Positions 6,372-43,579 of a DNA stretch of 64,000 nt are shown piece by piece. The stretch's first letter is position 1. Each line of letters opens with the position of its first letter. A program made the translations under genes and the position numbers. The notes beneath the pieces were generated by a model. The model was not told the DNA's origin, searched no databases, and saw nothing but the letters and a program-made list of their open reading frames with translations. Source of the stretch: an uncultured Chloroflexota bacterium (GTDB lineage: Bacteria; Chloroflexota; UBA11872; VXNJ01); NCBI GenBank assembly GCA_964496475.1, contig CAZBZS010000001.1, positions 36,512-100,511 of the forward strand. Direction: 5' to 3'.

Positions 6372-6445
6372 TGGGGCGTCGCCAAGCGGTAAGGCACCGG
6401 CCTTTGGAGCCGGCATTCGTAGGTTCGAATCCTACCGCCCCAGCC
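6372..6445 (+). tRNA. tRNA-Gln (anticodon TTG)
   Basis: TGGGGCG acceptor pairs with CGCCCCA. D-arm GCCAAGCGGTAAGGC, anticodon stem-loop CCGGC-CTTTGGA-GCCGG, T-arm GTAGGTTCGAATCCTAC. Close to the E. coli tRNA-Gln sequence. Confidence 0.85.
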
Positions 6446-8997: not shown

Positions 8998-10308
8998 TTG
9001 GAACCTTCTAGTTGGGTAAGTCTGCCTGTTGTCTTGGGTTTGACTATTCTCAATATACTGATCGTGGCCTCAGAGTCGGCTCTGCTTGCGGTGCGCCCCA
9101 GTCGCATCGCTGAACTGGCCGAATCCGGGGATTTCCGTGCTGGCCGGGTCCGCCGGTTGAAGGAGAATCCCCAAAGGCTGCGAGCCACGCTGCGGGCGGT
9201 GACGTCGTTCCTGGGTTTCGCGGCGGCGGCGGTGGCGGCGGTGAACCTGGGGCCGGAATTGGCGCGGATAATTCCCAGCGATCCGCTGGCCGTTGGACTG
9301 GTGACCCTAATTGCGATTCTGGTCACGGTGGTCGGCGCCGACCTAGTTTCCCGCCGGCGCTCGGACGATCCGGAACCGCTGGCCCTCGGTGCGGCGACCC
9401 TGATCGAATGGGTGATGCGGATGGTGTCGCCGCTCACGTGGGTCCTCGGACGGCCCGGCGCGCTGTGGTCGCGGGTGGCGGGAGACGCGGGCTCCGCCGC
9501 GCCGGATACGGACTCCAACGAGGAGATCAGGTGGCTGATTCAGGAAGGGGAAAAACGAGGCGCCATCGAGGACGACGAGGCGGCGATGATTCACGGAGTC
9601 TTCGAACTGGCCAGCCGGCCGGTGCGCGCGATCATGACCGCGCGGCCCGACGTAATCTTGGTGGAATCAGGCACCCCGGCCGGGGAAGCGCTCGATCTCG
9701 CAATCAAGCACGGGTTCTCCCGCCTGCCGGTCTACCGGGACACCGTTGACACCATCCTCGGGGTGGTCTCGGTGCGTGAGATGGCCGTGGCCCTCAGGGC
9801 CGAGCACAACGGCGATACCCCCGTGGACGAGCTTATGTGGGACCCGTTATTCGTGCCGGAAACTAAGCTGAGCGGCGATCTGCTGGCGGAATTACAGGAA
9901 TTGAAGACGCACATGGCGATCGTGGTGGATGAGTACGGAGACACGGCCGGAATTGCCACACTGGAAGACATAATCGAGGAGATCGTCGGCGAGATTGCCG
10001 ACGAAACCGATATCGAGCGGCCGGGTCTGGTGCAGCTGGACCAGAACACGGCCATGGTTGACGGGCGCATGGCGCTGTCGGACCTAAACGACGAGATGGA
10101 CCTGGACATCGAGGCTGACGGGGCGGACACGGTGGGCGGGCTTGTGTTCCTGACGCTGGGCCACGTGCCCGAGGAGGGCGAAAAATTGAAGGTCGACGGG
10201 GTCAGCATCGAGGTTCTGCGGGTGGACAACACGCGCATTCGCCGGCTACGACTGGTGAGGCAGGTCGCAGCCGAGCCGGCCCCGGAACAGGTTGACGACG
10301 AAGTCTGA
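8998..10308 (+). CDS. Hemolysin-family / CNNM (DUF21-CBS-CorC_HlyC) transporter-associated protein
   Basis: N-terminal 4-TM DUF21, tandem CBS domains, C-terminal CorC_HlyC domain. Apparent TTG start overlaps a GGTTCC/GGAACC hairpin. Confidence 0.85.
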   Translation: MEPSSWVSLPVVLGLTILNILIVASESALLAVRPSRIAELAESGDFRAGRVRRLKENPQRLRATLRAVTSFLGFAAAAVAAVNLGPELARIIPSDPLAVGLVTLIAILVTVVGADLVSRRRSDDPEPLALGAATLIEWVMRMVSPLTWVLGRPGALWSRVAGDAGSAAPDTDSNEEIRWLIQEGEKRGAIEDDEAAMIHGVFELASRPVRAIMTARPDVILVESGTPAGEALDLAIKHGFSRLPVYRDTVDTILGVVSVREMAVALRAEHNGDTPVDELMWDPLFVPETKLSGDLLAELQELKTHMAIVVDEYGDTAGIATLEDIIEEIVGEIADETDIERPGLVQLDQNTAMVDGRMALSDLNDEMDLDIEADGADTVGGLVFLTLGHVPEEGEKLKVDGVSIEVLRVDNTRIRRLRLVRQVAAEPAPEQVDDEV

Positions 10309-10714
10309 TCCGCCACTGGCGGACGACAAGGTCAAGCGCCTGTTTGAGGCGGCCGAAACGGCGCGGACGCACTCATATTCGCCGTATTCGGGATTCGCCA
10401 TAGGAGCGGCGGTGCTGACCGACCGGGACGAAATCGTTCCCGGAGCGAACGTCGAGAACGCCTCCTACGGCGCGACGATCTGCGCCGAGCGGTCGGCGGT
10501 GCTGGGGGCCATGTCGCAGGGAGCCGGGAAGCCGGTGGCGGTGGCGATCGTCAGCGACGCGGAGAATCCCGCCTGGCCCTGTGGCGAATGCCTGCAGGTG
10601 CTTGTTGAATTCAGCCGAGACCTGCCGGTCTACACGCGGGGCCAAAACGGCGTCGTCGAATCGGCACGAGTTGACGAGCTGCTAACCAGGCCGTTCGACG
10701 AGGTGCCGGAGTAG
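10292..10714 (+). CDS. cdd: Cytidine deaminase
   Basis: CAERSAV and PCGECLQ zinc-binding motifs. TTG start overlaps the upstream gene by 17 nt. Confidence 0.9.
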   Translation: MTTKSDPPLADDKVKRLFEAAETARTHSYSPYSGFAIGAAVLTDRDEIVPGANVENASYGATICAERSAVLGAMSQGAGKPVAVAIVSDAENPAWPCGECLQVLVEFSRDLPVYTRGQNGVVESARVDELLTRPFDEVPE

Positions 10715-10773
10715 GGGAGTTTGCACCAAATCCAGGGCCCGTATATTCCTGGGCCAGCGGAACGGTGTCGACG

Positions 10774-10794
10774 CCGGCACCGGCGGGGTGCCGG
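10774..10794 (+). terminator. GC-rich hairpin downstream of cdd (no U-tract)
   Basis: CCGGCACC-GGCGG-GGTGCCGG, a perfect 8-bp stem. Preceded by nested CCAGG/CCTGG and GGCCC/GGGCC hairpins. Confidence 0.35.
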
Positions 10795-11045
10795 TCCGAA
10801 TCCTCGGCGGAATGTCTGACTAGGCAACATCTAGGAGGTGCAGCTCGAATTTACGGGGCATTAGCATGATCGCGGTGGTGGTGGCGGTTGGAGCAGGGGA
10901 GGATTTGATCTCCGGGAGGAGGCTTCGGGTGGGCCGCAGGACTCGTCCCCGGGGAATGTGGCGTCCGCGCCTGATCTCAACCAGCTCCCACCAGCCGTGA
11001 TCTCGACCCCAACGTCCTGCGCATCCGATTCGCATCTGTGCCTGA

Positions 11046-12108
11046 ATGTGCGCGGCAGTTCGACGCCAGCGGAGCCGTCGCCCGTTCGCGAGCCAGGGAG
11101 CATGCGATGAAGGAGCGCTTCGAATCGGGATCGCGATCGCTGTAAGCGTCTTGGTAGCAGTGGCATCGTTTAGTCCGGGTATCTCCGCGGCAACGTATTG
11201 CACGGAAGTTCAAGATCCTGAGTATGTGCTCGGATTCGCCTTCATGAAGTTGCAGCTCGGCGATACGATAGGCGATCTGCTCGAGTGCGAACACACCAAC
11301 CCCGAAAACGGAGGCACGCTCCAAACAAGATCAAGGGCCTGGCTTTCTACCGAAAAGCAACGAATACGCCCACGTTTACCGATGGATGGAATCACTGTGC
11401 CTGGACGGCGGACGGGCTGGTTACATGGACCGGCGACAGCGTAGACCCATCGGGGATCGAGGTCCCGACTCCGACTCCCGCACCGACCGCGGTGCCGACT
11501 GCGCCTCCCGCGCCGACTGCGGCGCCCACTCAGCCGCCAGCAGTCGCCACTGAGCGGACTCAGACGTTCAGCAGAAGTGGAGATCAGGTTCTCCGCGTGA
11601 CGCTGCAGGCCGGCGTGGACCTGTTCGACTTTACCCACGACGGGTCAAGGAATTTCATTGCCTGGATGCGTGGGGCGAGCGACGATCTGCTGGTCAATGA
11701 AATTGGCGGGTACCGTGGCACAACCATGGCCGGTGTTCAGGCGGGCGAATTCCTACTCGATATCCAGGCGGACGGCGCATGGACATTATCCCTGAGAGAA
11801 CTGCGGAACCAGACCCCGGTCGGCGTACCTCACACGGCCACCGGCAGCGGTGACGCGGTGTCGAGTTTCATGAGCCTGAGCGGACTGTACATTGTCACCG
11901 CGAACTACACCGGTAGCTCGAACTTCATCGTTTGGCTGTATGACTCGAACGGGCAGTGAATTGACCGAGTCTTCAACAAGATCGGCTCCTACTCAAGGGG
12001 CAACACCGTCCGTGTGAATAGCGGATCGTACGTTCTCGTGGTCAAGTCCAGTGGCGACTGGTCGATCCAGATGGAGTAACCGCGAGAGGGGGACCGTCTT
12101 CTGAGGGA
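11046..12108 (+). pseudogene. Secreted PT-linker protein with two tandem ~75-aa C-terminal repeats, disrupted by a frameshift (~11325-11335) and an in-frame TGA (11956-11958)
   Basis: Frame A: R-rich n-region SRRPF, then h-region IGIAIAVSVLVAVASF, then a Cys-containing N-domain ending ...ECEHTNPENGGTLQ. The protein-like sequence then switches to frame B (NKIKGLAFYRKATNTPTFTDGWNHCAWTADGLV...). A P/T/A linker follows (PTPTPAPTAVPTAPPAPTAAPTQPP). Repeat 1 is GDQVLRVTLQAG...AWTLSLRE. Repeat 2 is GDAVSSFMSLSG...NGQ*IDRVFNKIGSY...DWSIQME, and it continues cleanly through the TGA to a TAA at 12106-12108. Confidence 0.55.
11461..11562 (+). repeat. Low-complexity Pro/Thr/Ala codon repeat (PT-linker) inside the secreted repeat protein
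   Basis: ccgact/ccgacc/gcgccg codon iterations encoding PTPTPAPTAVPTAPPAPTAAPTQPP. Confidence 0.8.
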
Positions 12109-12110
12109 AA

Positions 12111-12983
12111 TCATCCCGCAACGGCGATGAGGGCGACGCCGGCGGCAAGGGACAGGGCGCCGAGGATTCGGGCGCGGCCGGCACGCTCTTTGAGCAGCAA
12201 GACCCCGTAAAGAGTGGCGATGAGGATGCTGGTCTCGCGGGCGGCGGAGACGTACGTGACGATGCTCCAGGTCATGGCCGTAAGCACCATCGTGTAGGCG
12301 CCGAACAGGAGGATTCCGGCGGCGATGATCCAGAGGTATTCACGACGCACTAACGAAGTGAGCCGGACGGGCTTGCGGAGGTAGTAGGGGGCCATCAGCA
12401 GGGCCGAGCCCAGCACCCATAGCCACATGTAGATCAGGGGATTGACACGGGTGACGCCCGCCTTGTCGAGGACTGAATAAATGCCGATGGTCACCCCGGT
12501 GAGAAGGGCCAGGCGAGTGCCCGGCATCGTGACCAGGGCACGAAACGGCCGGGTGAGGTCGCGGATGGTGAGGTGCTCGGTACTTAGCAGGTAGACACCG
12601 GCGATCACCAGCAGCACGCCGCCGACACCGGCGACTGTCGGGGACTCGCCAAGGACGATAAAGGCGATGATCAGGACGAAGAGCGGACCGGTGCCACGGG
12701 CGAGCGGATAGGCGACGGAGAGGTCGGTGCGAGAGAGCGCTCCGCCGAGAAACAGGAAATAGAAGACGTGGATGACGGCGGAGGCGACGATAAAGATCCA
12801 GCCCTCGCCACTGATCGGATGGCTTGGCAGCAGGATGGCAAAGGCTGGCGCGTAGCCGATGACCCCAGCGATGATGGCCAGCCAGAGGAAAGCGCCTTGA
12901 TCGCGGGAACGCTTCGCCATGTAATTCCAGCCTGAATGCAGGAAGGCGGAGCCCAGTGCCAGGGCGAGAGCCGCGAGATCCAT
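12111..12983 (-). CDS. EamA/DMT-superfamily transporter
   Basis: 290 aa, 10 predicted TM helices in a two-EamA-domain pattern. Confidence 0.8.
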   Translation of the reverse strand: MDLAALALALGSAFLHSGWNYMAKRSRDQGAFLWLAIIAGVIGYAPAFAILLPSHPISGEGWIFIVASAVIHVFYFLFLGGALSRTDLSVAYPLARGTGPLFVLIIAFIVLGESPTVAGVGGVLLVIAGVYLLSTEHLTIRDLTRPFRALVTMPGTRLALLTGVTIGIYSVLDKAGVTRVNPLIYMWLWVLGSALLMAPYYLRKPVRLTSLVRREYLWIIAAGILLFGAYTMVLTAMTWSIVTYVSAARETSILIATLYGVLLLKERAGRARILGALSLAAGVALIAVAG

Positions 12984-14284
12984 TATTCGCCGGCCGCCGG
13001 CTTGAATTCAGCGATCACCGCGTGGTGGCGTTCGCCGGATCGGTACACGAAGAGGCGGTAGGGCGTGTCTCCTCGCAGGTAGCGCTGGAGGCGGGCCGCG
13101 ATGACATCCCCGGGCTCGGGAAAGCCGCGACAACGCACGGCAACCGAGCCGGACCCGAGCTTGCGGAGCCGCTCGCCGATGGCGCGATCGGAGAACGGTA
13201 GGGCGTCGATCACCCGATAATAGCGGGCGAATGGGGTTGTGGGCGCTGTATTGCTGGCCAAAAAGGCGATTTGCTCCGCCAGGACGCCGTGCTCGATGCC
13301 AGTGGCGGCGGCGAACTCGGTGAAGAGCCCCGAACGCACCAGGGCCGGCTCGGGCTCGGCGATAAAGCGGCCCGGTTCCTGTACGGGCAGGTAGTGGCCG
13401 GGTTCGCCGGTGAGTTCGGCGCGTGGGTTGTCGGCGGCGGCGCCGGACCCAAGCACAGTAGCCCGAAGGGAAGTCGAGATGGCTTGGCCAGCCCAGATGA
13501 CGGCCTCCTTGAGTTCGCCGTCGACGGAGACGAATTCGATCTCCGCGCCGGGGAAGGCATCCCGCAGGGCCGAGAGGGAAGCGGCGGGCGCGAGCTTGAT
13601 GGTGGTTGCCGGAGCACGGCCGGCCAGATCCGAGAGGAAGTCGATGGGCGGCGAGAGCCTTTTCAGGGAGGTGCTGCGTCGGTTTTCGGAGCGACGGGAA
13701 GGGTCGGCGTATACGACGCCGAATCCGTCGAGTGAAGCGGCTTCGGCCTCCCCGGTGCGGACCTGCACGCGGCCACCCATCCGGCCGGCTTCTTCCCCGG
13801 TTTCGTCGAAGCCGGCCTCGGAGAGGTTGCGTCGCACCATATCGGCCAGGAGTGGGTCGGATTCGACAGCGACGACAGACGCGCCGGCGCGGGCGAGCGC
13901 CAGAGTATCTCCACCCATCCCGGCGCAAACCTCCAGCACTGCTCCGAACCCGGAGAGTCGTTCGGCACGATGATCGGCGGCGATGGCGCCAGAAGCCTGC
14001 TCCAGCGCGGTGCGGGTGTACCAACGGGGATGGTCGGGGCCGAACTTGCGGACCGCGGCGGCACGTCCGGCAACGAGCTCGACGACCAGTGAGACGGCAG
14101 CCACGCCGCACTTCGCCCGGATCCTTTCCACCGTATGTAGCAGCCGCTGCCCGCTCACGTCGGCAGGGCCCAGGCTCGCAAGCAGTCGCTGGCCAGCCTC
14201 ATCGGCCAGGAAGCCCACAGCTTCAATTTTCTCAGGTATCGTCAACGCGGGTTGCCGCCATAAGTAGGTGGGTTGTCGCTCCAT
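12983..14284 (-). CDS. Class I SAM-dependent methyltransferase (large, THUMP-like-associated family)
   Basis: VLEVCAGMGGDTLALARAGASVVAVESDP is a Rossmann SAM motif I. 433 aa. The overlapping plus-strand ORFs are R-rich artefacts. Confidence 0.7.
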   Translation of the reverse strand: MERQPTYLWRQPALTIPEKIEAVGFLADEAGQRLLASLGPADVSGQRLLHTVERIRAKCGVAAVSLVVELVAGRAAAVRKFGPDHPRWYTRTALEQASGAIAADHRAERLSGFGAVLEVCAGMGGDTLALARAGASVVAVESDPLLADMVRRNLSEAGFDETGEEAGRMGGRVQVRTGEAEAASLDGFGVVYADPSRRSENRRSTSLKRLSPPIDFLSDLAGRAPATTIKLAPAASLSALRDAFPGAEIEFVSVDGELKEAVIWAGQAISTSLRATVLGSGAAADNPRAELTGEPGHYLPVQEPGRFIAEPEPALVRSGLFTEFAAATGIEHGVLAEQIAFLASNTAPTTPFARYYRVIDALPFSDRAIGERLRKLGSGSVAVRCRGFPEPGDVIAARLQRYLRGDTPYRLFVYRSGERHHAVIAEFKPAAGE

Positions 14285-14327
14285 ATAATGGCTTCCAGGA
14301 AGAATACCGGAGGGGGCCGACGGAGCC

Positions 14328-15096
14328 GATGATCCTGAAGCGATCTAATGCCTACCGGGCGCGCGGGTTCGTGCTGCGCCGTCACGACCTCGGCGAAGCC
14401 GACCGAATCGTGACCCTCTACACCCGCGAGCATGGCAAACGCCGGGCAGTGGCTAAGGGCGTGCGCAAGCCGCAGAGCCGACTGGCCGGTCATATCGAAC
14501 TGTTCTCGCTCGTGGATACGTACCTTGTGGTCGGGGGGAATCTGGACGTGTTGACGCAGGCGACAGCGCTGACCACCTATCCGCAACTGGTGGCGGACCT
14601 GGAGCGATTCGCGCAGGCGTCCTGGGCGGCGGAGACGCTGGATAGATTGACTCCCGAGTCCGAGGCGGATTCGTATCTCTTTGACGTTTTCGAGATCGCG
14701 CTGGAACGGATCGCCGCAGCCGAGCGGCCGGGGCTGCATCTGCGGCAATTCGAATTGCTGGCGCTGGATCGGGCCGGTTACCGGCCGCAACTCGAACGCT
14801 GCGTCGAATGCGGGGAATCGCTGCAGGAAACGACGAACAGATTCGCGCCGCAGGCGGGCGGGGTCGTGTGCCCGAAGTGCCCTCCCGACGGATTGTCGAT
14901 TCCGTTGTCGCTGCGCACGTTGAAATCGACGCGTTGGCTCCTGGCGGCGGAGCCCGGGTCGGCGGGGAGGCTGCAGACGGACGGCGAGTTGGAAGCCGGG
15001 CTGGAAAAGCTGCTGAGGTCGTACCTGACGGCTGTAGTGGGCAGCGGGTTTCGCTCGGCGGACCTGCTGGACCGGGTGCGCTCCAACAACGTCTAG
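14328..15096 (+). CDS. recO: DNA repair protein RecO
   Basis: MILKRSNAYRARGFVLRRHDLGEADRIVTLYT is the RecO N-terminal OB fold, with a C-terminal CxxC...CxxC zinc finger (CVECG...CPKC). The ORF track's long N-terminal extension from 13606 is spurious. Confidence 0.9.
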
Positions 15097-15198
15097 AAGA
15101 GAGGCGATCGGACGGGTCGCGCGGCATTGACCGCACCGGGCATAATCTCCCGACCTGACTAATCACCCTGCGCTCCCACTCGCACCGAACAGGACTGC

Positions 15199-16539
15199 AT
15201 GGCCAAGAAAAACAACACGATGGACAAACTGGTCTCCCTGGCCAAGCGGCGCGGGTACGTGTTCCCCAGCTCCGAGATTTACGGCGGCTTCGGCAGCACC
15301 TGGGACTACGGTCCGCTCGGAGCGGAGCTGATCCGTAACATCAAGGAAGCCTGGTGGCGGGACGTAGTGCTGGCGCACGACAATGTCGTGGGGATCAACG
15401 CGTCGATCTTGATGTCGCCGGAGATTTGGAAAGCGTCGGGGCACGTAGAGCATTTCTCAGATCCGCTGGTGGAGTGCAGCAACTGCCGACGGAGATTTCG
15501 TCCGGATGATCTGGATAAGCCAGACCAGTGCCCGGTGTGCGGGAATAAGGAACTGGGGGAGTCGCGGCAGTTCAATACGATGTTCAAGACGTTCGTTGGG
15601 CCGGTCGAGGGCGAGGCGGCGGTGGCCTACCTGCGGCCAGAGACGGCGCAGGCGATTTTCGTGAATTTTAAGAACGTACAGCAGGCCGCCCGGGCGCGGC
15701 TGCCGTTTGGCATCGCTCAGATCGGAAAGGCGTTTCGTAACGAAATCACTACCGGCAACTTCCTCTTCCGCACCCGCGAATTTGAACAAATGGAGATGGA
15801 GTTCTTCGTCCAGCCCGGCGATGACGAGCGTTGGTTCGACTTCTGGGTGAAAGAGCGAATGGACTGGTTCCAACGCTACGGAATCCCGGAAGAGAAGTTG
15901 CGGCTGCGGGCGCACGATCCGGAAGAGCTGGCCCACTACTCGCGGGGTACCAGCGACATCGAGTACGAATTCCCGTTCGGCTGGAGTGAAATCGAGGGCA
16001 TCGCCCGGCGGGGAAATTACGACCTACACAAACACCAGGAGGCGTCCGGGAAGGACCTCACCTACTTCGACCAGACGGCGAACGAACACGTCCTACCCTG
16101 GGTTGTGGAGCCGTCAGTTGGAGTCGACCGCACCGCGCTGGCGTTTCTGGCCGAGGCATACGCCGAGGAGGAGATCGAGTCGGCAAAGGGCGAGATGGAG
16201 ACGCGCACCGTCCTGCGCCTTGACCCGCGCCTGGCGCCGACGAAGGTGGCGTTTTTCCCGCTGATCAAGAAAGAGCCACTACAGGAAATGGCGCACCGGC
16301 TACAGGACGATTCTAGGTTCGACTGGACAACCTTTTACGACGAGGCGGGGGCCATCGGCCGCCGTTACCGGCGGCAGGATGAAGCCGGGACGCCCTATTG
16401 CGTAACCGTGGACTTCGACTCACTGGATGACAATGCTGTCACGGTGAGAGACCGGGACACTCTGAAACAGGATCGGGTGGCGGTGGCGGAATTAACGCCC
16501 TATCTGAGGGAGAAACTCGCCTGGCGCCAGACAGGCTAA
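15199..16539 (+). CDS. glyQS: Glycine--tRNA ligase (dimeric class II type)
   Basis: LAKRRGYVFPSSEIYGG and the FRNEITTGNFLFRTREFEQMEMEFF motif 2/3 region. 446 aa. In the recO-glyS arrangement. Confidence 0.95.
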   Translation: MAKKNNTMDKLVSLAKRRGYVFPSSEIYGGFGSTWDYGPLGAELIRNIKEAWWRDVVLAHDNVVGINASILMSPEIWKASGHVEHFSDPLVECSNCRRRFRPDDLDKPDQCPVCGNKELGESRQFNTMFKTFVGPVEGEAAVAYLRPETAQAIFVNFKNVQQAARARLPFGIAQIGKAFRNEITTGNFLFRTREFEQMEMEFFVQPGDDERWFDFWVKERMDWFQRYGIPEEKLRLRAHDPEELAHYSRGTSDIEYEFPFGWSEIEGIARRGNYDLHKHQEASGKDLTYFDQTANEHVLPWVVEPSVGVDRTALAFLAEAYAEEEIESAKGEMETRTVLRLDPRLAPTKVAFFPLIKKEPLQEMAHRLQDDSRFDWTTFYDEAGAIGRRYRRQDEAGTPYCVTVDFDSLDDNAVTVRDRDTLKQDRVAVAELTPYLREKLAWRQTG

Positions 16540-30518: not shown

Positions 30519-30812
30519 CGGGGACGCATTACCGGGGAGTTGGAGCGGCCGGGAGCCTCGCCGGATGGTGCCCGAAACACAAAAAGGGACGCTCCACCGA
30601 CGCCGGTCGCCACCAATTTGTCCCCGGGTTTACCAGGTGGGTGCCCGCGGCCGACACGAACGGCTTTCGCCGATCCCGCCACCAGCCAAGCTCCCCTATT
30701 TGAAGTGTTGGAACAAAATATTCAGGCGATTATCGAACGCGGTCGAGCGTCCTCAGCCAATTATCGCCCATGCGGCAGCGGCTGTGAAGTAACTCCCGCA
30801 ACGCCAGGACGG

Positions 30813-36676: not shown

Positions 36677-36749
36677 GGAGCGGGTAGCGGGAATCGAACC
36701 CGCATTTCAACCTTGGGAAGGTCGCGTTCTGCCACTGAACCATACCCGC
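36677..36749 (-). tRNA. tRNA-Gly (anticodon CCC)
   Basis: Minus-strand GCGGGTATGGTTCAGTGGCAGAACGCGACCTTCCCAAGGTTGAAATGCGGGTTCGATTCCCGCTACCCGCTCC. Anticodon loop TTCCCAA, T-arm GCGGGTTCGATTCCCGC, 7-bp acceptor stem. Confidence 0.85.
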
Positions 36750-42505: not shown

Positions 42506-43579
42506 TTGTCACTTAGAGCTCAGGCTCTCGCGGGCATCACCTTCGTCGTGGTATTCGCGATGTTCGCCGCATGTTCTCCCGGATCGTCGCCTGCCGGCGT
42601 AGCCACATCCCCGCCGCCGAGTAGCATCCCCGATTCAGATCAGGCCCATACCGAATTACCTGTTATCGAGCAGGCTGTCCAGCTTGAGTTCGAACCCGAC
42701 TGCCCTCTCACTATTCCCGAGCTGGTACGTCGCATCTCGCCTGCCGTCGTCCACATCTCCACCAAAGAAGTCACCGTGAACGCCAGCGGCCGGCCGGTGC
42801 CCGCCGGCGGGGTAGGGACCAGATTTATCATCGACGCCATCGGCCTGGTCGTCACAAACGATCATGTGATCAGCGGGGCAGCCTCCATCCGGGTGACTCT
42901 CACCGACGGCCGTGATGCCGAGGCCGAGTTGATTGGCAGCGACCCGATCTCCGACCTGGCAGTCTTGAGGATCGGTCTCACCGATCTTACGGTCGCCCCC
43001 CTTGGCCGATCCGCCGATTTGCAGGTTGGCGAAACCGTCGTGGCCATCGGTCACGCGCTAGACCTCCCCGGCGGCCCCACCGTGACCGTCGGCGTCGTCA
43101 GCGCCCTCGACCGCACCCTGACCAACGTCGGCCCCGGCGGCGCGACCCTGAGCGATCTCATTCAGACCGACGCGTCCATCAACCCCGGCAATAGCGGAGG
43201 ACCGGTCCTCGACGCCTGTGGTCGAGTCGTCGGCATCAACTCCGCCGACATCCAGGGCATCGAAAATATCGGCTTCGCCATCAGCATCGATGGCACCCGG
43301 GCAATCATTGACGAACTGATCGCCAACGGACGCATCGAACGCGGATTCCTGAGCGTCGTCAGCGCGACCGTGACCCGCGGCATAGCCCGCCGTTTCGAGC
43401 TTCCGGCCAGCGCCGGGGTATTCATCGATCGAATCTCCCCCGGGAGCGCGGCCGAGGCTGGCGGACTCCGCCCCGGAGACATGATCATCGGGCTGGCCGG
43501 CGACTCAATTGACGATCAGGGAGAACGGAGTCGGACCCTCTCACGGAAGAAAAGGGGGTCAGCGGGGGGAGGAATATAA
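42506..43579 (+). CDS. S1C (HtrA/DegP-like) trypsin-family serine protease lipoprotein with a short PDZ-like C-terminus
   Basis: TTG start gives MSLRAQALAGITFVVVFAMFAACS (lipobox-like). Catalytic triad context TNDHV...D...GNSGGPVLD. The PDZ-like GLRPGDMIIGLAGDSI region ends early. Confidence 0.85.
   Translation: MSLRAQALAGITFVVVFAMFAACSPGSSPAGVATSPPPSSIPDSDQAHTELPVIEQAVQLEFEPDCPLTIPELVRRISPAVVHISTKEVTVNASGRPVPAGGVGTRFIIDAIGLVVTNDHVISGAASIRVTLTDGRDAEAELIGSDPISDLAVLRIGLTDLTVAPLGRSADLQVGETVVAIGHALDLPGGPTVTVGVVSALDRTLTNVGPGGATLSDLIQTDASINPGNSGGPVLDACGRVVGINSADIQGIENIGFAISIDGTRAIIDELIANGRIERGFLSVVSATVTRGIARRFELPASAGVFIDRISPGSAAEAGGLRPGDMIIGLAGDSIDDQGERSRTLSRKKRGSAGGGI

Follow-up and report, generated by a model that had tools for sequence, protein, structure and literature searches.

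A 64-kb stretch of DNA from an uncultured, probably marine Chloroflexota bacterium (hereafter the window, meaning the whole 64,000 nucleotides) carries, between a cytidine/deoxycytidylate deaminase gene (cdd) and a convergently oriented EamA-type transporter gene, a coding region that cannot be read in a single frame. Three-frame translation yields a protein-like reading on the forward strand from ~11107 (or 11046) to a TAA at 12077–12079, with a single frame change and one in-frame TGA. This copy is very probably a recently inactivated accessory gene, a pseudogene, occupying a variable slot between cdd and EamA. The elements of the gene are listed below.

11046–11048 (+): the sole ATG, GTG or TTG codon that precedes the hydrophobic core in phase 0; it opens a 48-aa Arg-rich leader with SRRPF and has no Shine-Dalgarno sequence
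11095–11109 (+): from the sequence, a GGGAG Shine-Dalgarno sequence (11095–11099) and ATG 11107 (MKERF), the probable ancestral start, in phase 1
11121–11189 (+): hydrophobic core and cleavage region of the signal peptide, RIGIAIAVSVLVAVASFSPGISA, aligning with the signal peptides of intact homologues
11190–11452 (+): N-domain of ~85 aa with two conserved Cys and a fold like that of LGFP repeats; phase 0 encodes its first part and phase 2 the rest
11325–11335 (+): frameshift from phase 0 into phase 2 through loss of one base (TCAAAG to TCAAG at 11331–11335 would be an example), located by the tblastn junction and the homologue alignment
11396–11398 (+): TGT (Cys) in place of a nearly invariant N-domain Trp, from the family alignment
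11453–11551 (+): Pro/Thr/Ala-rich linker in the phase 2 translation, variable in length and sequence among homologues
11552–11809 (+): repeat 1 (R1), a β-jelly-roll module, from translation, repeat comparison and a homologue model
11810–12076 (+): repeat 2 (R2), a β-jelly-roll module interrupted by the TGA, defined in the same way
11957–11959 (+): in-frame TGA, a nonsense lesion in a variable loop of repeat 2, from translation and homologue alignment
12077–12079 (+): TAA, the ancestral stop of the gene; nine aligned homologues terminate in the same alignment column

A split gene and its intact homologues

From ATG 11046, phase 0 stays open and gives MCAAVRRQRSRRPFASQGACDEGALR, the hydrophobic segment IGIAIAVSVLVAVASFSPGISA, and then ATYCTEVQDPEYVLGFAFMKLQLGDTIGDLLECEHTNPENGGTLQT, reaching ~11333 with the first half of the N-domain. 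Phase 2 supplies the remainder of this domain as KGLAFYRKATNTPTFTDGWNHCAWTADGLVTWTGDSVDPS, followed by the Pro/Thr/Ala-rich linker and the two repeats. The joined product is ~324 aa long, and a search with the joined sequence returned 219 relatives. Nine intact homologues of 289–346 aa (37–46% identity) have the same architecture and align with the joined product from end to end. The order of signal peptide, N-domain, linker and two repeats is found in eleven listed hits, one of which has an extra insert. When the family is compared with the window by tblastn, the homologues match in phase 0 up to 11324–11339 and in phase 2 from 11324–11336 to 12070–12076, running across the TGA.

The end-to-end alignment and the tblastn matches across both breaks identify the region 11046–12079, on sequence grounds, as one gene for one apparent exported modular protein. 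A preliminary description of this DNA had proposed as much, with a single frame switch near 11330, which the tblastn junction at 11324–11339 bears out. The converse reading as two unrelated open reading frames (ORFs) is ruled out by the full-length alignment of the joined product with intact homologues. Two positions need correction: the TGA in repeat 2 is indeed in frame but lies at 11957–11959, not 11956, and the repeat reading, previously extended to 12108, ends at the TAA at 12077–12079. In an annotation, the region is best marked as one pseudogene rather than as two or three hypothetical ORFs. Searches of Pfam, NCBIfam and PDB sequences with the reconstructed protein returned only sub-threshold noise, and an exact 24-mer taken from the gene had no match in the JGI metagenome contigs.

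Lesions and the state of the gene

The extent of the frameshift can be read from its surroundings. The interval between LQ and GL comprises four residues in the nine homologues; in the window it is made up of 8 nt and one codon, which is exactly one base short and places the loss within 11325–11335. At the position of the TGA, the nine aligned homologues have Gln, Ser, Thr, Arg or a gap, and three further homologues, compared by eye, have Lys, Pro or Asp; none has Cys.

A protein-like reading is preserved on either side of both breaks, as would be expected if the gene were expressed by programmed recoding, through a −1 frameshift at ~11330 combined with TGA read-through, selenocysteine insertion or an altered code. 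No X XXY YYZ slippery site is present at the frameshift (11300–11345), however, and the nine aligned homologues have neither the frameshift nor a Cys at the TGA position. The 60 nt following the TGA fold at −14.6 kcal/mol, no better than shuffled sequences (−12.9 ± 2.8 kcal/mol), and contain no hairpin resembling a selenocysteine insertion sequence. TGA is also the commonest stop codon in the window, terminating 12 of the 24 long ORFs, including the EamA gene, whose 290-aa product matches most of its close homologues in length. With no slippery site, no hairpin and TGA serving as an ordinary stop, we reject programmed frameshifting, selenocysteine and a reassigned TGA, and regard expression by recoding as scarcely credible.

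The lesions recur in a second assembly. A contig from a Mediterranean water-column metagenome (L049; ENA ERZ909419, run SRR5007147, project PRJNA352798), reached through its 99%-identical EamA protein, aligns with window positions 9000–15200 at 99.92% identity over 6,201 bp without gaps. It has zero mismatches in 9000–12960, so the frameshift and the TGA are the same in both sequences. A gene call made independently on this contig gives only a 120-aa fragment that terminates at the TGA. Five mismatches outside the gene indicate that the window and the contig are two distinct consensus sequences. All five cluster at 12961–12989, around the beginning of EamA, where it overlaps the gene upstream, and all are C in the metagenome contig; they may reflect an assembly artefact or a local variant.

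This recurrence bears directly on an option that the preliminary description had kept, in which the organism has an intact gene and both breaks arose in sequencing or assembly. The likeliest deletion site does fall in a short stretch of A residues (TCAAAG shortened to TCAAG), a context prone to indel errors, and the remainder of the joined sequence is well preserved. Against this, the separately assembled contig is identical across the whole gene, and a substitution to TGA is not an error of the homopolymer type. The damage is also local: stop-to-stop ORFs of genome-typical GC3 (guanine-plus-cytosine content at third codon positions) make up ~85% of the window, a figure obtained with no homology check of those genes' integrity, and two or three lesions fall within 1 kb here. 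Conserved residues have changed as well. With the same lesions in a second assembly and clustered within 1 kb, we judge sequencing or assembly error to be very improbable.

The changed residues point to relaxed constraint. Of 37 N-domain columns with ≥90% conservation, this copy deviates at 6, compared with a family mean of 1.3, and only 3 of 69 members reach as many; the replacements include Cys for Trp, Gly for Asp and Ser for Pro. The repeats deviate at 7 of 38 columns that are ≥80% conserved (mean 2.9), mostly in repeat 2. Selective constraint is, by the measure of these replaced residues, relaxed in this copy, which would no longer be able to give rise to a secreted full-length product. 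The decay suspected earlier is thus seen both in lesions that are base-identical in another metagenome assembly and in substituted conserved residues, and in kind the locus is an ordinary unitary pseudogene.

Several observations weigh against this reading. The excess of changes at conserved repeat sites falls inside the family range, with 6 of 52 members equally high, and the agreement between the window and the metagenome contig is weaker evidence if both derive from overlapping read sets. The databases searched contain no intact orthologue above 46% identity.

The N-terminus probably bears a further lesion. Two starts come into question, ATG 11046, which shares the frame of the hydrophobic core, and ATG 11107, which follows the GGGAG sequence but lies in phase 1. 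If translation began at ATG 11107, another base would have to be missing at ~11119–11124, since this codon is out of phase with the core; one added base there would link MKERF to RIGIAIAV... and would give a canonical Sec-type signal peptide of typical length. Among 54 members of the N-terminal type, the first conserved Cys has a median position of residue 31.5 (interquartile range 29–37). Counting from ATG 11107 places it at residue 32, and counting from ATG 11046 places it at residue 52. A third lesion near 11119–11124 is likely on these grounds.

The other start would make the product a substrate of twin-arginine translocation (Tat) with an undamaged N-terminus, SRRPF serving as the twin-arginine motif. 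This sequence fits the S/T-R-R-x-F pattern, and the preliminary description had named it a Tat-like motif. Tat motifs directly abut the hydrophobic core. In a protein started at ATG 11046, the Arg pair is instead 15 residues ahead of the core, with Asp, Glu and Arg in between, and the start has no Shine-Dalgarno sequence. The leaders of the aligned full-architecture homologues are short and lack a twin-arginine motif, and only 4 of the 54 N-terminal-type members have an Arg pair beside the core. The distance to the first conserved Cys is also out of keeping with this start, and Tat export is not required for an extracellular disulfide-bonded domain. We consider a Tat-exported product improbable; with ATG 11107 as the start, SRRPF falls in the untranslated part.

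The slot between cdd and EamA

In close relatives, the segment with this gene is either absent or taken up by other content. The surrounding features are as follows.

10292–10714 (+): cdd (cytidine/deoxycytidylate deaminase), the conserved left flank, identified as an ORF, with PF00383 in L049, L050 and L057
10770–10893 (+): remnant of a membrane-protein gene, comprising a Shine-Dalgarno sequence (AGGAGG) and the first ~16 codons, with its start changed from TTG to TCG; cut short where the islet begins
10894–12107 (no strand): the islet, a 1.2-kb segment without a counterpart in relatives with 77–90% identical flanks, from blastn against L050, L051, L052 and L057
12111–12983 (−): EamA/DMT transporter gene, an ORF with PF00892 that forms the conserved right flank and runs convergently to the pseudogene

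Relatives found through their EamA proteins keep the order CNNM–cdd ... EamA–THUMP-like methyltransferase–recO, and differ in what lies between cdd and EamA.

L050 and L051 (EamA 87% identical): a gene-free spacer of 388 bp
L057, a 3.3-Mb contig (EamA 90%): a gene for a 159-aa membrane protein
L052 (EamA 89%): a HicB-like gene and a gene for an unrelated 538-aa protein of no assigned family
A JGI contig (EamA 77%): AP-endonuclease, HicB-like and methyltransferase genes
L054–L056 (EamA 56%): EamA adjoins the CNNM gene

The blastn comparison and these five states agree with the preliminary view of an islet that was possibly acquired recently, and the cdd–EamA junction is, as its sequence reads, an insertion hot spot for accessory genes with at least five states. 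The readable DNA of the spacers in L050/L051, L052 and L057 holds no remnant of the present gene. Nucleotide homology to the relatives ends at the cdd stop (10715) and resumes at the EamA stop (~12110–12115), with the exception of 10782–10890, where the window shares 84% identity with L057 over the start of its intact 159-aa gene and the sequence upstream of it. The homology edges of the islet thus fall at 10893/10894 and at ~12108–12115. The islet carries the gene together with ~210 bp of its own upstream sequence. A 44-aa ORF at 10866–11000 is the out-of-context continuation of the membrane-protein remnant.

Since 10782–10890 matches only the 5′ end of the L057 gene, the ~1.2-kb segment (10894–12107) appears to have replaced the rest of a resident gene. 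The proposed course of events is that the gene-bearing segment replaced most of the resident 159-aa membrane-protein gene and that the gene was disabled afterwards. The one-base deletion in the N-domain (11325–11335) would have disabled it after its arrival, the TGA at 11957–11959 in repeat 2 would be a further disabling change, and a second one-base loss just past the original ATG 11107 a probable third. The direction of this exchange, insertion in this lineage and not loss or replacement in the others, is suggested only by the truncated resident gene.

The lower guanine-plus-cytosine (GC) content noted for the islet is real, though modest: 0.598–0.607 compared with 0.633 for the window, which corresponds to the 2nd–5th percentile of windows of the same size. 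The joined coding sequence has a GC3 of 0.70, compared with 0.776 ± 0.035 for 24 long ORFs. In its conserved flanks, differing content, truncated resident gene, atypical GC3 and inactivating mutations, the locus resembles unitary pseudogenes in bacterial insertion hot spots. Unlike marked hot spots, it has no tRNA, integrase, transposase or flanking direct repeat at the islet edges in the window, and the islet has no match among plasmids and phages. A 21-nt inverted repeat (10796–10816 and 12151–12171, 86% complementary) was considered as a pair of terminal inverted repeats and rejected. One arm is in the conserved remnant on the left and the other in the terminal part of EamA (3′) on the right, both outside the replaced segment; since both arms sit in sequence shared with insert-free relatives, they are probably a chance occurrence and not the ends of a mobile element.

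Members of the family and the cdd–EamA slot repeatedly adjoin mobile or addiction-type genes. Two IS6/IS240 transposase genes flank P0009 (L046, 4856–7754), which is apparently truncated at its N-terminus, P0003 lies between HicB-like genes (L048, 1224–4158), and P0005 is found among small helix-turn-helix/GerE genes. HicB-like antitoxin genes also occur in the slot of two relatives (L052, 4919–5185). Elsewhere in the window are a 6S RNA gene at 30587–30751 (−; 56.7 bits) and two tRNA genes at 6372–6443 (+) and 36679–36749 (−).

Modules of the ancestral protein and their possible roles

The folds of the two modules were examined in AlphaFold2 models of the closest intact homologue, P0001 (predicted local distance difference test score, pLDDT, of 90), and of P0070, which has the N-domain alone (pLDDT 95–98 over the domain). 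The N-domain folds as a helix followed by a five-stranded β-meander. The preliminary description had given it four Cys residues, a count that included leader residues and the Trp-to-Cys replacement; the mature domain in the window has three, of which two are conserved in the family and the third is the replacement at 11396–11398. The domain has no Pfam or NCBIfam model. Structure comparison of the model gives a cell-wall-binding repeat as its sole specific neighbour.

The closest known system is the LGFP repeat (PF08310), represented by the C-terminal domain of the mycoloyltransferase A (MytA)/PS1 protein of C. glutamicum (PDB 6swz and 6sx4). Like LGFP repeats, the N-domain combines a helix with a small antiparallel sheet, and the two can be superposed. 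The N-domain differs in being a single five-stranded unit of ~85 aa instead of an array of ~54-aa repeats, in usually standing N-terminal after a signal peptide, and in being nearly confined to Chloroflexota rather than belonging to Actinomycetota. Chloroflexota are not known to have arabinogalactan. Sequence comparisons do not confirm a relationship. Aligned by hhalign with the four LGFP repeats of MytA (6swz), the N-domain alignment gives a probability of 1% over 7 columns, and PF08310 matches 1 of 24 trimmed N-domains (E = 0.08). The reconstructed window protein has no PF08310 match at E ≤ 10, and a PDB profile search with the N-domain alignment does not recover MytA (6swz). Four of 67 full-length members do match PF08310 (best E = 8e-5), at positions within the proteins that were not located; a scan of ten N-domain proteins for placing such matches found none. 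Because the sequence profiles give no kinship, we call the N-domain LGFP-like in fold only.

N-domain proteins come almost exclusively from Chloroflexota metagenome-assembled genomes (MAGs), often in several copies per genome. Two to four separate N-domain genes occur in single Chloroflexota MAGs (loci L005/L009, L012–L014 and L019/L024/L034/L037), so the domain is a multi-copy module within genomes; the rest of the 64-kb window contains no further match to it. In most members the N-domain directly follows the signal peptide and precedes trypsin-like, M23 or zinc peptidases, DUF2927, PKD, SH3 or other domains, and P0057 and P0070 consist only of a membrane anchor and the N-domain. The window also encodes, at 42698–43333 (+), a trypsin-like (S1C) protease domain that is ~32% identical to the protease part of P0029, P0030, P0032 and P0040.

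The two C-terminal repeats are significantly alike, with 31% identity between R1 and R2 (BLASTP E = 6e-12), as the preliminary description had recognized, and are ~85 aa long instead of the 75 aa it gave. It had been unable to name the repeat domain, for which Pfam and NCBIfam have no model; the fold is a common β-jelly-roll. The nearest known counterparts are the tandem collagen-binding domains (PPC, PF04151) of the clostridial collagenases ColG and ColH (PDB 1nqd, 5iku, 3jqw and 5sv5), and the repeat can be superposed on the s3b domain of ColG. PF04151 does not match the window protein, and the PPC match in 1 of 52 family members (E = 3.9e-4) has a position that was not located. A profile search with the repeats collects 7,225 clusters at 50% identity with E ≤ 1e-3, and 2,081 with E ≤ 1e-30. 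Members come from Chloroflexota, Nonomuraea, Bacillus/Salipaludibacillus and Massilia, and the repeats, two to four per protein, almost invariably form the very C-terminal end, preceded by dockerin, CWB2, PKD, DUF4352 or SH3 domains. Both modules are thus shuffled among secreted proteins.

The ancestral product would have been an exported protein of ~320 aa, with a Sec-type signal peptide, the N-domain, a flexible Pro/Thr linker and two jelly-roll modules. Sec export and cleavage of the signal peptide would have come first. The disulfide-containing, LGFP-like N-domain may then have held the protein on the cell envelope, with the linker as a spacer and the tandem C-terminal jelly-rolls binding a polymeric ligand. 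As no catalytic domain is present, a surface-displayed binding or adaptor protein is the most likely identity, the binding function being suggested by the architecture. The preliminary description had likewise read the architecture as that of a surface-binding protein, and the signal peptide and domain layout it relied on are shared with the homologues.

The two roles could also be reversed, with the repeat pair acting as a surface-retention or sorting element and the N-domain as the ligand-binding head. The almost invariably C-terminal position of the pair behind varied passenger domains would suit such a function, and P0057 and P0070, in which the N-domain accompanies a membrane anchor, show that it need not itself be an anchor. 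Models of the sorting domain of the type IX secretion system (T9SS) also gave matches, all below threshold: TIGR04183 scored 16.6 bits (cut-off 23) and PF18962 scored 11.9 (cut-off 27), and a few members of the repeat family have sub-threshold Por_Secre_tail and CHU_C matches. The repeat pair is, however, found in Chloroflexota, Bacillota and Actinomycetota, in none of which is a T9SS known. The cell-wall-binding repeat as the only specific structural neighbour of the N-domain, and the position of this domain next to the signal peptide before many enzymes, fit a shared anchoring module. We consider the reversed assignment unlikely, though a serious alternative, and favor an N-domain that would have anchored the protein and repeats that would have bound its ligand.

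The pseudogene would now do nothing for the cell. Its convergent cdd–EamA junction is an exchange hot spot for accessory genes in a marine Chloroflexota lineage, with at least five states between 77–99% identical flanks, and the locus leads to a large family of tandem jelly-rolls undescribed in curated libraries. Whether the two modules of the dead gene define uncurated families of wider interest is a proposal we make tentatively, as somewhat less than an even prospect. The jelly-roll pair, which lacks a Pfam model and has ~7,200 clusters spread over Chloroflexota, Actinomycetota, Bacillota and Proteobacteria, may be a new module for ligand binding or surface retention. The N-domain may be a disulfide-stabilized LGFP-like module, specific to Chloroflexota, that follows the signal peptide of dozens of different exoenzymes, and it could be a phylum-wide device for tethering secreted proteins to a poorly understood envelope. 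If the N-domain binds the envelope, it would offer a testable handle on how exoproteins are displayed in Chloroflexota.

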